DNA from: Laetmonice hystrix
Lineage: Eukaryota
NCBI GenBank assembly: GCA_965235115.1
Contig: OZ249436.1
Coordinates: forward strand, 620,001 to 684,000
DNA length: 64,000 nt
Direction: 5' to 3'
The translations under genes and the position numbers were made by a program. Positions 805 through 5,279 of the stretch are shown one piece after another; within the stretch, counting starts at the first letter, position 1, and each line of letters begins with the position of its first letter. The notes below the pieces were generated by a model. It was not told the origin of the DNA and made no database searches. It was given only the letters and a program-made list of their open reading frames with translations.

Positions 805-1096
805 CAGCCTAGCTCTGACGATATTAGCCACCATGGCAATATCTGCTGGTCACTCACACACAATCACACAAGTACATTCAGCCTAGCTATCTGCTGGTCA
901 CCCACACACAATCACACAAGTACATTCAGCCTAGCTCTGACGATATTAGCCACCATGGCAATATCTGCTGGTCACCCACACACAATCACACAAGTACATG
1001 GTCACCCACACACAATCACACAAGTACATTCAGCCTAGCTATCTGCTGGTCACCCACACACAATCACACAAGTACATTCAGCCTAGCTATCTGCTG
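805..1096. repeat. Host minisatellite (CACACAATCACACAAGTACATTCAGCCTAGCT-type units), left part
   Basis: Variable tandem units. The same motif resumes at 3043-3233, so the array is interrupted by the 334-bp concatemer. Confidence 0.85.
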
Positions 1097-3043
1097 TGTA
1101 GCTCTAACTAGGAAAATATGGATTCCGTCTCATTTCAAAAAGATGTGTGTAGGGGGGAGGGTCCATTGTCCTGCTCGACCACCAAAGCTCCTTTTTTAGG
1201 GGAGTGGCGGTGGCCTAGTGGGCATGGATGTCGACACCTTATGCTATGCGAATGGGTGCAGTAATCTTAGGGTCTGGGTTCGATTCCTGTAGAGGACTAT
1301 ACAACTTTTCTCTTTAGGGACATTGTCAAAGTAATTGGGTTACCCCTGATGCCCGTGCATTTCAAAAGAAAAATACAGTCTACGCCAGTGCCAGGATTAC
1401 CTTAACAGTCAATGTTCGGTAGAAATCATGTGTAGCTCTAACTAGGAAAATATGGATTCCGTCTCATTTCAAAAAGATGTGTGTAGGGGGGAGGGTCCAT
1501 TGTCCTGCTCGACCACCAAAGCTCCTTTTTTAGGGGAGTGGCGGTGGCCTAGTGGGCATGGATGTCGACACCTTATGCTATGCGAATGGGTGCAGTAATC
1601 TTAGGGTCTGGGTTCGATTCCTGTAGAGGACTATACAACTTTTCTCTTTAGGGACATTGTCAAAGTAATTGGGTTACCCCTGATGCCCGTGCATTTCAAA
1701 AGAAAAATACAGTCTACGCCAGTGCCAGGATTACCTTAACAGTCAATGTTCGGTAGAAATCATGTGTAGCTCTAACTAGGAAAATATGGATTCCGTCTCA
1801 TTTCAAAAAGATGTGTGTAGGGGGGAGGGTCCATTGTCCTGCTCGACCACCAAAGCTCCTTTTTTAGGGGAGTGGCGGTGGCCTAGTGGGCATGGATGTC
1901 GACACCTTATGCTATGCGAATGGGTGCAGTAATCTTAGGGTCTGGGTTCGATTCCTGTAGAGGACTATACAACTTTTCTCTTTAGGGACATTGTCAAAGT
2001 AATTGGGTTACCCCTGATGCCCGTGCATTTCAAAAGAAAAATACAGTCTACGCCAGTGCCAGGATTACCTTAACAGTCAATGTTCGGTAGAAATCATGTG
2101 TAGCTCTAACTAGGAAAATATGGATTCCGTCTCATTTCAAAAAGATGTGTGTAGGGGGGAGGGTCCATTGTCCTGCTCGACCACCAAAGCTCCTTTTTTA
2201 GGGGAGTGGCGGTGGCCTAGTGGGCATGGATGTCGACACCTTATGCTATGCGAATGGGTGCAGTAATCTTAGGGTCTGGGTTCGATTCCTGTAGAGGACT
2301 ATACAACTTTTCTCTTTAGGGACATTGTCAAAGTAATTGGGTTACCCCTGATGCCCGTGCATTTCAAAAGAAAAATACAGTCTACGCCAGTGCCAGGATT
2401 ACCTTAACAGTCAATGTTCGGTAGAAATCATGTGTAGCTCTAACTAGGAAAATATGGATTCCGTCTCATTTCAAAAAGATGTGTGTAGGGGGGAGGGTCC
2501 ATTGTCCTGCTCGACCACCAAAGCTCCTTTTTTAGGGGAGTGGCGGTGGCCTAGTGGGCATGGATGTCGACACCTTATGCTATGCGAATGGGTGCAGTAA
2601 TCTTAGGGTCTGGGTTCGATTCCTGTAGAGGACTATACAACTTTTCTCTTTAGGGACATTGTCAAAGTAATTGGGTTACCCCTGATGCCCGTGCATTTCA
2701 AAAGAAAAATACAGTCTACGCCAGTGCCAGGATTACCTTAACAGTCAATGTTCGGTAGAAATCATGTGTAGCTCTAACTAGGAAAATATGGATTCCGTCT
2801 CATTTCAAAAAGATGTGTGTAGGGGGGAGGGTCCATTGTCCTGCTCGACCACCAAAGCTCCTTTTTTAGGGGAGTGGCGGTGGCCTAGTGGGCATGGATG
2901 TCGACACCTTATGCTATGCGAATGGGTGCAGTAATCTTAGGGTCTGGGTTCGATTCCTGTAGAGGACTATACAACTTTTCTCTTTAGGGACATTGTCAAA
3001 GTAATTGGGTTACCCCTGATGCCCGTGCATTTCAAAAGAAAAA
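1095..3043 (+). mobile_element. Head-to-tail concatemer (about 5.8 copies) of a 334-bp tRNA-promoter-bearing, rod-folding element (SINE/retrozyme/viroid-like)
   Basis: Units start at 1095, 1429, 1763, 2097, 2431 and 2765 (period 334), with no differences seen by eye. Each has an A box TGGCCTAGTGG (1211-1221), a B box GGTTCGATTCC (1277-1287) and T6 (1192-1197) just before the tRNA-like head. The acceptor stem does not pair, so it is not a functional tRNA. Confidence 0.8.
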
Positions 3044-3233
3044 CACAATCACACAAGTACATTCAGCCTAGCTCTGACGATATTAACCACCGTCACCCAC
3101 ACACAATCACACAAGTACATTCAGCCTAGCTCTGACGATATTAACCACCGTCACCCACACACAATCACACAAGTACATTCAGCCTAGCTCTGACGATATT
3201 AACCACCGTCACCCACACACAATCACACAAGTA
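3043..3233. repeat. Host minisatellite, right part
   Basis: Tandem CACACAATCACACAAGTACATTCAGCCTAGCTCTGACGATATTAACCACCGTCACCCA units, related to 805-1096. Confidence 0.85.
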
Positions 3234-4193
3234 TATTGACATCCTATATACAGAACGCCGCTCCTGTTCTCGGAACGTTTCGGGTGACATTTATAATATC
3301 GGCATCACATCACCCAACCCCCATTGTTTAACGTTTCAGTCAGAATCGTTTCACCAAAGCCTCCTGCGCTACCCTCACTATGCCGTTATACAATGTCTAA
3401 GGAATGTGTACTTTTGAGTATAATACGTTTGTCGAAACATGCAGTCAGCTCAATTTGGATACATTGTATAACCATGGCCTTTCGCCAGCATGTCACAACT
3501 GGAATACTTATTGTATTTAAATACGTGATATCTCTAATCAACATAATCAAAATACGTCTACAAAAAATCCAGGTCACGTGCCCAGAGCTTTTATCTACAT
3601 GTTTATAATAATACTATAGAGGCACACAATAAACCAACCTGTAAACGGTATCCCTCTTTGTACATGCACACCTGATCTTATTCTTTGGAAACCTTCACAA
3701 TGATTTCGATAATTCGCCTTCTGATGCAACATTCCCTGCTCTATCTTAAACATAACCATCAATTCCAAGGTAAAAATCACAGTTCTTTCAGAAGTCTTGA
3801 ATGAGATGTTATGTAATGAGTCGGACAAACAGAACTTCTAACATGTCGAACACTTGCGCAGTCAATCCAACTACATAGAAGCAGTTCCGGGTCATTGTTT
3901 GTCCCATACACCCATTGGGTCGACACGCATGCGTACTTAAACCTCTAATTGTAGCATAGATTCAAATCCTCGGACGAATCTTCGCATAGAAAGATGGACG
4001 TCTTTGATAAATGTGGATCGGAATCAGATAGGATGTGACGTCACACGGAACGGTTGCACACTGATCGAGACGGTCACAGAACGGTTGCACACTGATCGAG
4101 ACGGTCACAGAACCATGAGCACATCGCGCCCTCTCTCTTGATCCGTCGTCTCGGCATTCAGTTTACAAACACACACACGTAACCTTGCGTCCT

Positions 4194-4622
4194 TTAGTAG
4201 CCCTTCCTTTTGATCATGGCGAAGTGGGTCATCTCCATACGGCCTTGCCGCCGGTCCCCTCGCTCCAGGGTGCCTGTAATGCTGTACCCCATTTGAAAGT
4301 CTGTGTTTGATACATTTGTCGTCAAACTGAGTTTAAAATCTGGGTCAGGCCCGCCATGTTTGAACCTTCCCGTAATGCACATCGTGCCGTTTCCGTTGTC
4401 TGTCATTTTGCCCTTGGTTGAAACCTTCTTGGTGCCCATGACCTCGATGACCTTGCACTTCTTGCGACTCCACCAAGGTGTCTTGAGAATCCAGTACGAG
4501 AGCAGTGCGGGGCGTGCCCAGCCCTCGTACGGGAATAGAAGCACCTTGCTCGGGTACCCGTCATATTGCAAGATCTTCCTGCAGCATTTGCCGCGGTTTT
4601 CATAGTAAAACAACTGCACCAT
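4194..4622 (-). CDS. Uncharacterised 142-aa protein (MVQLFYYENRGKCCRKILQY...THFAMIKRKGY), probably beta-rich
   Basis: Non-repetitive ORF with protein-like composition and a strong Kozak context (AAAGATGG). The same frame stays open upstream to a TTTCAG acceptor at 4812-4813, giving a possible terminal exon 4811-4194 (phase 0). No family recognised. Confidence 0.65.
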   Translation of the reverse strand: MVQLFYYENRGKCCRKILQYDGYPSKVLLFPYEGWARPALLSYWILKTPWWSRKKCKVIEVMGTKKVSTKGKMTDNGNGTMCITGRFKHGGPDPDFKLSLTTNVSNTDFQMGYSITGTLERGDRRQGRMEMTHFAMIKRKGY

Positions 4623-4918
4623 CTTTACTTCTTCTTGGCTGTCTTCTAATTTGGCTGCAAATGTTGCCTTTTCTTTGCCTAAACGTTTCAGTCGACTTTT
4701 CTCGCTGTGACAGGTGGTTCCTAGCGACAGCTGAGCTGGTGTCAGGATGTACGGAGACGGGTCGTCCAGTACTGATCGGCCGAGGATTAGAACATTACTG
4801 ACTAAAGATGTCTGAAACTCCTTTAGTGTTCACGAATTCAGCCAAGCTCATTCCGAGTTTATCTATGTACTCGCTTCTATGCATTGGCGTGAGGTCTGCA
4901 CTTACAGGTATGAACGTT

Positions 4919-5051: not shown

Positions 5052-5159
5052 GGTGGTATACAAGAACCGCCCCAGTCGGGCAGTCACTTAGAGCTGACAC
5101 GTGATAGGGACACCTCAGGAGAGACTCGTCCCGTGTCTTGAGGGCGGTGTGGACGGTAC

Positions 5160-5279
5160 CTGCAGGTACTGGAGGAGAATCAGGAGGAGAAGCAGGAACA
5201 GAAGGTTTTGGTCCGTGCCAGTGTCAGGACCTACCGGAGGGGGGCGCTGCTGCTGCTGCTGCTGCTGCTGCCTGAGTGA
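5160..5279 (-). CDS. Candidate upstream exon of the 4194-4811 gene (SLRQ8RPPPVGPDTGTDQNLLFLLLLLILLQYLQ); could instead be 5' UTR
   Basis: Strong acceptor TTCTTTTTGTTGTGTTTACAG and donor CAG|GTACCG. 120 nt, phase 0/0, compatible with the acceptor at 4812. The other two frames contain stops. Confidence 0.4.

Follow-up and report, generated by a model that had tools for sequence, protein, structure and literature searches.

A 334-base tandem repeat in Laetmonice hystrix that appears to be a ribozyme-free circular element with its own Pol III unit and a Penelope-like partner

How could a small RNA circle be made in an animal cell, and returned to the genome, if the unit that encodes it carries no self-cleaving ribozyme? 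The question is raised by a repeat array near the beginning of a 64,000-nucleotide stretch of Laetmonice hystrix DNA (contig OZ249436.1, positions 620,001 to 684,000 of the forward strand; hereafter the window). The array, on the plus strand at 1095..3043, is one insertion of 5.8 identical head-to-tail units with no difference among them; it is 5'-truncated at unit position 232 and ends 3' at unit position 176, at the reverse-transcription start described below. Unit positions are window positions minus 1197, such that +1 is 1198 and 334 is 1531. On the same strand a host minisatellite at 840..1096, the insertion target, forms the left flank, and a related minisatellite at 3043..3237, which opens with an ACA-containing microhomology to the tip of the unit, forms the right. 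Tandem Repeats Finder reports 106 rows of minisatellite arrays over the whole window, and two stretches downstream of the array, 4199-4703 and 5125-5276, read like minus-strand exons, an intron or a position beside a gene being a possible setting for the array. From the analysis presented here, the 334-base repeat appears to be a selfish, ribozyme-free circular element that is transcribed by Pol III and copied by a Penelope-like enzyme.

The original prediction had described each unit as a self-contained Pol III cassette, and the letters bear this out. A T6 run at 1192..1197, which is the terminator of the preceding unit and in other copies a variable join of T5 to T8 with A or C tails, is followed directly by AGGGGAG. 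The A box of a type-2 Pol III promoter, TGGCCTAGTGG, lies at 1211..1221, the B box, GGTTCGATTCC, at 1277..1287, an internal T4 at 1306..1309, and the T6 that follows at 1526-1531, one period of exactly 334 bp downstream, all on the plus strand and all where they had been placed. One unit (1198..1531, plus strand) thus corresponds to a predicted Pol III transcript and RNA circle of 334 nt with a rod-like fold, its putative start being the A or the first G at 1198..1199 (+). The closing-stem 3' strand and the T6 terminator occupy 1521..1531 (+), and the unit ends are adjacent and base-paired, as had been claimed: 1198-1205 pairs with 1521-1528 at a pair probability of 0.92. An A and B box pair at the spacing of the unit arose in none of 20,000 unit shuffles. 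The B box, for which there is also a sub-threshold Rfam match to a T-loop fragment, belongs to the family's least variable segments (0.62% mismatches vs 2.0% for the whole unit), and the A box shows 1.09% mismatches across family copies with one subfamily site excluded. ARAGORN found no tRNA. The tRNA/SINE-like head at 1200..1287 (+) aligns, though weakly, with that of an ordinary tRNA-SINE in this genome (score 38.5 vs a shuffle maximum of 36), and the head of an older copy aligns at 53.5 vs a shuffle maximum of 38.5, scores to which the boxes contribute much. That tRNA-SINE is dispersed (L087-L090, e.g. G000:C1:2122285), about 270 bp long, with a short CCCA-repeat tail and a conserved-looking central GGTTTCCTCC repeat, presumably a core of the V/Meta type; its head resembles that of the circular element. 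The unit is without a conserved reading frame: the only frame, of 48 codons, spans the join and would be shifted by the common T7 join variant.

The window array is one insertion of a large family. Across 627 Mb in 35 contigs we counted 2,903 unit-to-unit joins and 4,358 matches to the A-box/B-box pattern; among the first 100 of these matches listed, most belong to this family and the rest are mainly the ordinary tRNA-SINE. Of the four runs considered, all of them contigs of DNA or of unknown kind, X5 and X7 contain the unit as a single self-closing contig of 364 bases, a result that a low-coverage tandem DNA repeat gives as well. The module shared with the Penelope-like partner, described below, gave no match in the metagenome contigs scanned, and relatives in other species were not found. 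Copies were analysed in 74 sequences, the window and 73 loci, some picked as best BLAST matches, others taken because every family place listed for the first 23 Mb of C1 was included, and seven chosen for starting at unit position 184. These gave 129 distinct segments, or 118 after the 11 touching a locus edge were dropped. The 3' ends of 101 of the 118 copies fall at unit positions 170-189, 83 of them at 180-183, and the 5' ends are spread all round the unit, with lengths of 60 to 2,098 bases. A shared 3' end with scattered 5' ends suggests that copying would start at a fixed internal tip and run backwards through the join. The original prediction had the RNA reinserted by reverse transcription; reinsertion is supported, with the correction that copying would begin not at the Pol III 3' end but internally, at the A-rich tip at the opposite end of the rod, at about 1373..1380 on the plus strand (…GAAAAA|TACAGTC), as placed by copy ends and by the match profile of the targets.

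Of the 164 distinct ends compared with their targets, about 90% match the unit at 177-180; when two favourite minisatellites are set aside (80 ends), the match is 69%, 52% and 48% at 181, 182 and 183, and it falls to chance from 184 on (20% at 184). This profile points to priming by microhomology, and targets seem to be chosen according to the RNA letters immediately past the start site. One minisatellite, with a TACAGTC in every unit (L060, L077, L085, L034 and others), has received many independent insertions in both orientations, with several at a locus; the small element and its Penelope-like partner have both inserted into a second, which contains TACAGTGAG. Target-site duplications, judged by eye, are absent in several unique flanks and about 5-30 bases long elsewhere, the minisatellites confounding the assessment. 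No intermediate-frequency variant was seen in 9 of 11 long arrays, the other two (L094, L101) being mosaics. Some arrays have been expanded or duplicated after insertion, including L049 and repeated blocks on C21 and C3.

Which enzyme could prime inside an RNA in this way? The original prediction had named neither this internal start nor a source for the enzyme. A search of the genome for GIY-YIG returned 124 matches, mostly to one family with a 759-codon frame that often stands in arrays with a period of about 5.58 kb. A young member, L182 (G000:C7:18351700-18357350), is 5.58 kb long with two ORFs; arrays occur, for example, at C7:18.340-18.375 Mb. Its reverse transcriptase followed by a C-terminal GIY-YIG domain, its tandem organisation and its minimal hammerhead are those of an EN+ Penelope-like element (PMC8557442). 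The hammerhead, of minimal type I, lies behind a TATA box and was identified from its motif and its fold, Rfam giving no match to it. A CX4CXXC linker in the translation suggests Neptune or Nematis as the candidate clade, following the definition given in PMC8557442. The L182 arrays run head to tail for up to 7 units of about 5.58 kb each with the insertion end inside the unit, so L182 may itself roll on a hammerhead-made circle. Two domains are encoded in ORF1 of L182, NADAR and one that is GDSL/esterase-like; the frame closes on a TTTAAAC stretch that overlaps ORF2 and resembles a -1 frameshift site. A second GIY-YIG family, with a 789-codon frame, lies at chromosome ends (C6:5237, C17:28026, C2:22011, C21:23535194) and is possibly a subtelomeric Penelope-like element.

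The small element is linked to L182 by a module at 1314..1430 on the plus strand (unit positions 117-233) that is homologous to the partner's 3' UTR, with 91 of 109 aligned letters identical and an alignment score of 88 vs 27.6 +/- 4.9 for shuffles. All three partner insertions examined end at AAAATACAG, the same letters as the end of the small element, and two of the three lie in a minisatellite that the small element also uses. Partner mobilisation of the small element in trans would account for this pairing. Judged by homology, the small element is a tRNA/SINE-type head joined to the partner's reverse-transcription start module and to a rod-closing strand ending in the terminator, and what it took from the partner is the start module, not the hammerhead. 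An Anolis Penelope-like reverse transcriptase is described as initiating internally in an AC-rich stem-loop in vitro, at a start site not homologous to the cut DNA (PMC11167929), whereas the start site of the small element is homologous to its targets.

The RNA was expected to close into a rod, and the fold was assessed both by energy and by copy variation. The rod is not the minimum-energy fold: the free fold reaches -93.9 kcal/mol (z 0.34) and the best unbranched fold -90.3 kcal/mol, 3.6 kcal/mol off. The unbranched fold is nonetheless better than that of 25 of 25 shuffles (-68.5 +/- 6.2, z -3.5). Rod pairs are kept by 19 of 33 inherited substitutions vs 30 of 119 private mutations (p 7e-4), and compensatory changes occur at 5/327 (9 segments), 128/213 (2 segments) and 59/266 (1 segment), the first being a G-C to A-U change in the closing stem. 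Copy variation thus supports the rod on the plus strand. In the partner the upper rod is not conserved, with 22 of 28 mapped pairs kept and only 3 of 9 changed pairs; the free fold of the partner's module is branched, and only the basal helix, with one two-sided change, is common to both. Whether much of the B box lies in the largest bulge, as had been stated, varies with the fold chosen. The best rod has its largest bulge at 1259-1269 and leaves the B box mostly paired, but forcing 1270-1283 open costs only 1.2 kcal/mol (-89.1), and in this near-equal fold the B box would lie in the bulge. For the promoter the bulge is irrelevant, since a promoter is read as DNA.

We then consider where copies begin. 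5' junctions were counted genome-wide with a pattern requiring two non-matching letters before a given position. They number 71 at +1 (47 clusters) and 75 at +2 (65 clusters), with some of the +2 matches being duplicates of one old copy, and 13 at control position 45. The start predicted at 1198-1199 is consequently marked by 146 copy 5' ends over two positions vs 13 at the one control position. We fetched 80 of the 146 start places, 77 of which were short; 63 were left when 4 duplicates and 10 join variants had been dropped. Of these, 56 reach no further than the first tip, 5 run past it and 2 have no tip motif. Copies that start at unit positions 4-160 are divided differently, 30 single and 25 multiple, vs 56 to 5 at +1/+2 (p 5e-6); in a stricter set, from which 12 more with element-derived or shared flanks were dropped, the +1/+2 starts stand at 45 to 4 (p 2e-5). 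The same asymmetry is present in the first sample, in which 9 copies stop and 62 cross at the first encounter with the join, vs 0 stops and 71 crossings at later encounters. The counts support a stop at +1/+2 that is effective on the first pass and not on later ones. Linear RNA beginning at +1/+2, mixed with closed circles, predicts this, and neither read-through multimers nor repeated template jumping predict it well. In six loci (L133, L139, L155, L158, L166, L131) internal unit positions are joined to +1/+2, one of them with extra A's, suggesting that joining of the RNA 5' end also extends to 3' ends that have been truncated.

The join itself is the second source of evidence. The commonest join among 72 segments is T6-A in 41 and T7-A in 13, with T7 mostly uniform per array. 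A letter other than T precedes the A in 100 of the 2,903 joins, at 43 loci, and at 15 of the 43 neighbouring units carry the same variant, in runs of as many as 18; a matched internal control site, T3|AGGG, gave 24 matches of which none was repeated (p 5e-4). We fetched one unit from 13 of the 15 variant arrays, the other two being already at hand. The tails seen were T4+AA, T3+AA, T4+CAA, T5+AAA, T4+AAAC and T4+ACA, and T4+ACA recurs without change at four joins in succession. Along an array, unusual joins agree letter for letter (4 of 4 in L160; runs of 6, 7 and 18). Since a T5+A join stands on three sequence backgrounds, an older subfamily among them, and T5+C also on three, the same variants would have been made afresh and not inherited from one master. 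The variable A and C letters are apparently non-templated, and the evidence supports a join that would vary like a processed RNA 3' end and be fixed within arrays. Several observations temper this. Most variant joins differ by a single letter at the T/A boundary, which slippage can make; the control site has 2 multi-letter insertions in its 24 matches, its denominator not having been counted; array-fixed variants occur in unit bodies too; and later tandem expansion can spread a variant (L049; an array of 18 units). A T3-A-T2 join, which would not terminate Pol III, recurs, often at a single join (L016, L034, L053, L086, L101), and is the only join form in the single whole-unit contig of run X7. 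The original prediction had cautioned that the internal T4 could end transcripts early. No T4-terminated end joined to +1 was found, the single match in that search being a microhomology join 9 bases further on, and the caution finds no support among transcripts that were later joined.

Collectively, the 5' ends, the first-pass stop and the joins of genomic copies are consistent with the predicted order of Pol III transcription, end joining and reinsertion by reverse transcription, and we consider it probable that a Pol III unit, processing and ligation of its RNA ends, and rolling copying by a Penelope-like reverse transcriptase together explain the family. Pol III would start at 1198/1199 through the A and B boxes and stop in the next T-run, giving the 334-nt unit whose stem would hold the RNA ends together, a step indicated by the motifs and by where copies begin. 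The U-rich 3' end would then be trimmed or tailed with U, A and sometimes C, as the join variants suggest, and ligated to the 5' end by a putative host ligase. A Pol III transcript with its 5' triphosphate and terminal U-OH is no ready ligase substrate, and the triphosphate must first go; extra end processing must therefore be assumed. The partner's RT/GIY-YIG protein, its action deduced from the homology and the shared end, would bind the module at 1314-1430, nick the target at ACAG-type sites and prime internally at the A-rich tip, at about 1373-1380. On a linear RNA the enzyme would run off at +1 and leave a dead, SINE-like copy of 180 bp; on a circle it would pass the join and go round, giving arrays such as that of the window. 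Because only arrays hold a whole promoter-to-terminator unit, end joining would be obligatory for the family to persist. Transcription, the identity of the polymerase and covalent closure are all read from genomic copies here. On balance we lean towards a new route to viroid-like RNA circles in an animal, in which Pol III start and stop would replace the ribozyme, the host would tail and ligate the ends, and a Penelope-like reverse transcriptase would roll from an internal, telomerase-like priming site.

The rival that survives best keeps the same Pol III unit and partner and dispenses with the covalent circle: the reverse transcriptase would jump from the 5' end to the paired 3' end at each turn, on the same or on another RNA molecule. 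Such jumping needs no ligase chemistry, the stem keeps the RNA ends together, and the mosaic arrays and the joins from internal positions to +1/+2 in the six loci given above are what it could produce. A jump, however, should fail about equally at each turn, and the stops are 9 vs 62 crossings first and 0 vs 71 later, with 56 single vs 5 multiple copies at +1/+2 genome-wide; nor would jumping be expected to repeat an unusual join letter for letter along an array. We regard it as unlikely, if the most serious of the alternatives to a ligated circle.

Arrays might instead derive from read-through multimers, made past a leaky T6 or by Pol II, and from unequal crossing-over, with no joining of ends. 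Expansion or duplication after insertion is known in this family (L049 and the blocks on C21 and C3), the non-terminating T3-A-T2 join recurs, and Sm-alpha of schistosomes is described with multimeric Pol III transcripts (PMC6765202). Multimers of this kind should often begin at +1, yet only 5 of 61 classifiable +1/+2 starts are multimeric; tails such as T4+ACA, fixed in arrays and on different backgrounds, are left unexplained, and arrays could only shorten with each generation. This origin is very unlikely.

The lack of a ribozyme had also been part of the original prediction, and the searches agree with it. Rfam at gathering score reported no ribozyme in the whole window, and with E up to 10 it reported only the 11-base T-loop fragment in 1095-1900. 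Our own hammerhead and HDV-type descriptors, run on both strands of a dimer, found no HDV fold and one weak hammerhead-like match with two mismatches, elsewhere than 1346-1380; for twister and hairpin ribozymes the search consisted of Rfam and inspection by eye. A candidate at 1346-1380, CUGAUG-C…GAAA…GUC, resembles a hammerhead core. It was rejected, being without stem I and without the conserved A, with no CUGANGA on either strand, and it lies inside the module shared with the partner, where the partner has GUG, not GUC, its real hammerhead motif being about 770 bases away. A retrozyme with an unrecognised or degenerate ribozyme that cuts after the GUC at 1380, the Pol III boxes serving as promoter as in Sm-alpha, could draw on these core-like letters, on the target match, whose stop at position 183 is also explicable by such a cut, and on whole-multiple copies starting at 183-185 (L033, L037, L076, L084, L093, L099, two of which were selected for that). 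With no Rfam match, no stem I at the site, no clear pile-up of 5' ends at 184 (11 vs 13, the control being from the first half only and a mild excess possible) and a GUG in the partner's copy of the stretch, we give this reading a very small chance. That the repeat is an ordinary tRNA-SINE or satellite made tandem at the DNA level, by unequal exchange or extrachromosomal DNA circles, is least credible of all, for although the window is full of minisatellites and the 180-bp copies resemble plain SINEs, the dispersed arrays have one common 3' end and random 5' ends, the unit has 151 bases past that end, beyond any linear copy, and the selection on pairing is strand-specific.

The genome-encoded small circular retroelements that we found described all depend on a self-cleaving ribozyme and were discovered through it. 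A class without one, if real, would have been missed by ribozyme-based searches, and the repeat points to the existence of such elements and of a host machinery able to turn Pol III transcripts into circles; the thousands of copied ligation junctions in this genome would then be a fossil record of an undescribed pathway of Pol III RNA circularisation. In the literature we did not find a ribozyme-free, Pol III-delimited circle mobilised by a Penelope-like element, though subscription journals, supplements and the family lists of Repbase and Dfam could hold one. The pairing of small element and partner is unusually direct, with a 117-base module, an end and targets in common, and a 334-nt RNA would make it testable whether Penelope reverse transcriptases roll on circles and what internal priming recognises. 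A Pol III cassette that circularises itself in cells would also be of interest for RNA expression technology.

Among known systems, non-autonomous Penelope-like elements such as MRC1 of Chlamydomonas are described as multi-copy head-to-tail insertions with 3' similarity to an autonomous family (PMC8557442). The small element likewise has its 3' region and insertion end in common with the autonomous family and forms 5'-truncated head-to-tail insertions with no coding capacity, and by its sequence it qualifies as an element of this kind. It differs in features of which the cited sections on the MRC1 type make no mention: a Pol III head, a unit defined by its terminator and the joining of RNA ends (PMC8557442). 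The tRNA-derived SINEs carry an A/B-box head of tRNA type and a recognition sequence borrowed from an autonomous partner, as described in PMC10886601. The small element recalls them in the A and B boxes of its tRNA-like head, in copies that begin at the predicted start and in the SINE-like look of its 180-bp copies. It lacks, however, a LINE-mimicking 3'-terminal tail, its copies ending mid-transcript at a Penelope-derived site; its partner is Penelope-like and not a LINE, its recognition site also lies in mid-transcript, and its monomeric copies cannot regenerate the element.

Sm-alpha has a Pol III promoter within a tandem SINE-like unit, with single copies dead and at least two units needed, and a hammerhead that cuts monomers from multimeric transcripts, according to the description in PMC6765202. 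The internal Pol III promoter inside a tandem unit is found here too. In contrast, we found no monomer-cutting hammerhead and no 5'-end pile-up at the candidate cut, and the ends of the small element's unit are the predicted Pol III start and stop, with the join at the terminator. A precedent for that join is offered by U6/LINE-1 chimeras: before retrotransposition, the host ligase RtcB is reported to link a Pol III RNA, through its U-rich 3' end, to the end of another RNA (PMC6789731). Those joins are intermolecular, incidental and dead on arrival, whereas the joins proposed here would be intramolecular and apparently part of the normal life cycle.

Non-LTR retrozymes are the remaining comparison. 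They are described as non-coding tandem repeats of 170-400 nt whose self-paired RNA is circularised by a host ligase and copied by rolling-circle reverse transcription, with a proposed origin from, and mobilisation by, Penelope-like elements (PMC7229834; bioRxiv 10.64898/2026.07.22.740005). The unit, too, is short, non-coding and tandemly repeated, its dispersed copies range from monomers to multimers, and it is linked by sequence to a Penelope-like element. By definition every retrozyme unit has a type I hammerhead, and retrozymes are said to lack promoters (PMC7761336). The unit has no hammerhead; it has a Pol III promoter and terminator of its own, and it borrows the reverse-transcription start module from its partner in place of the ribozyme. 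The small element would work like a non-LTR retrozyme, possibly by a new route of circularisation.
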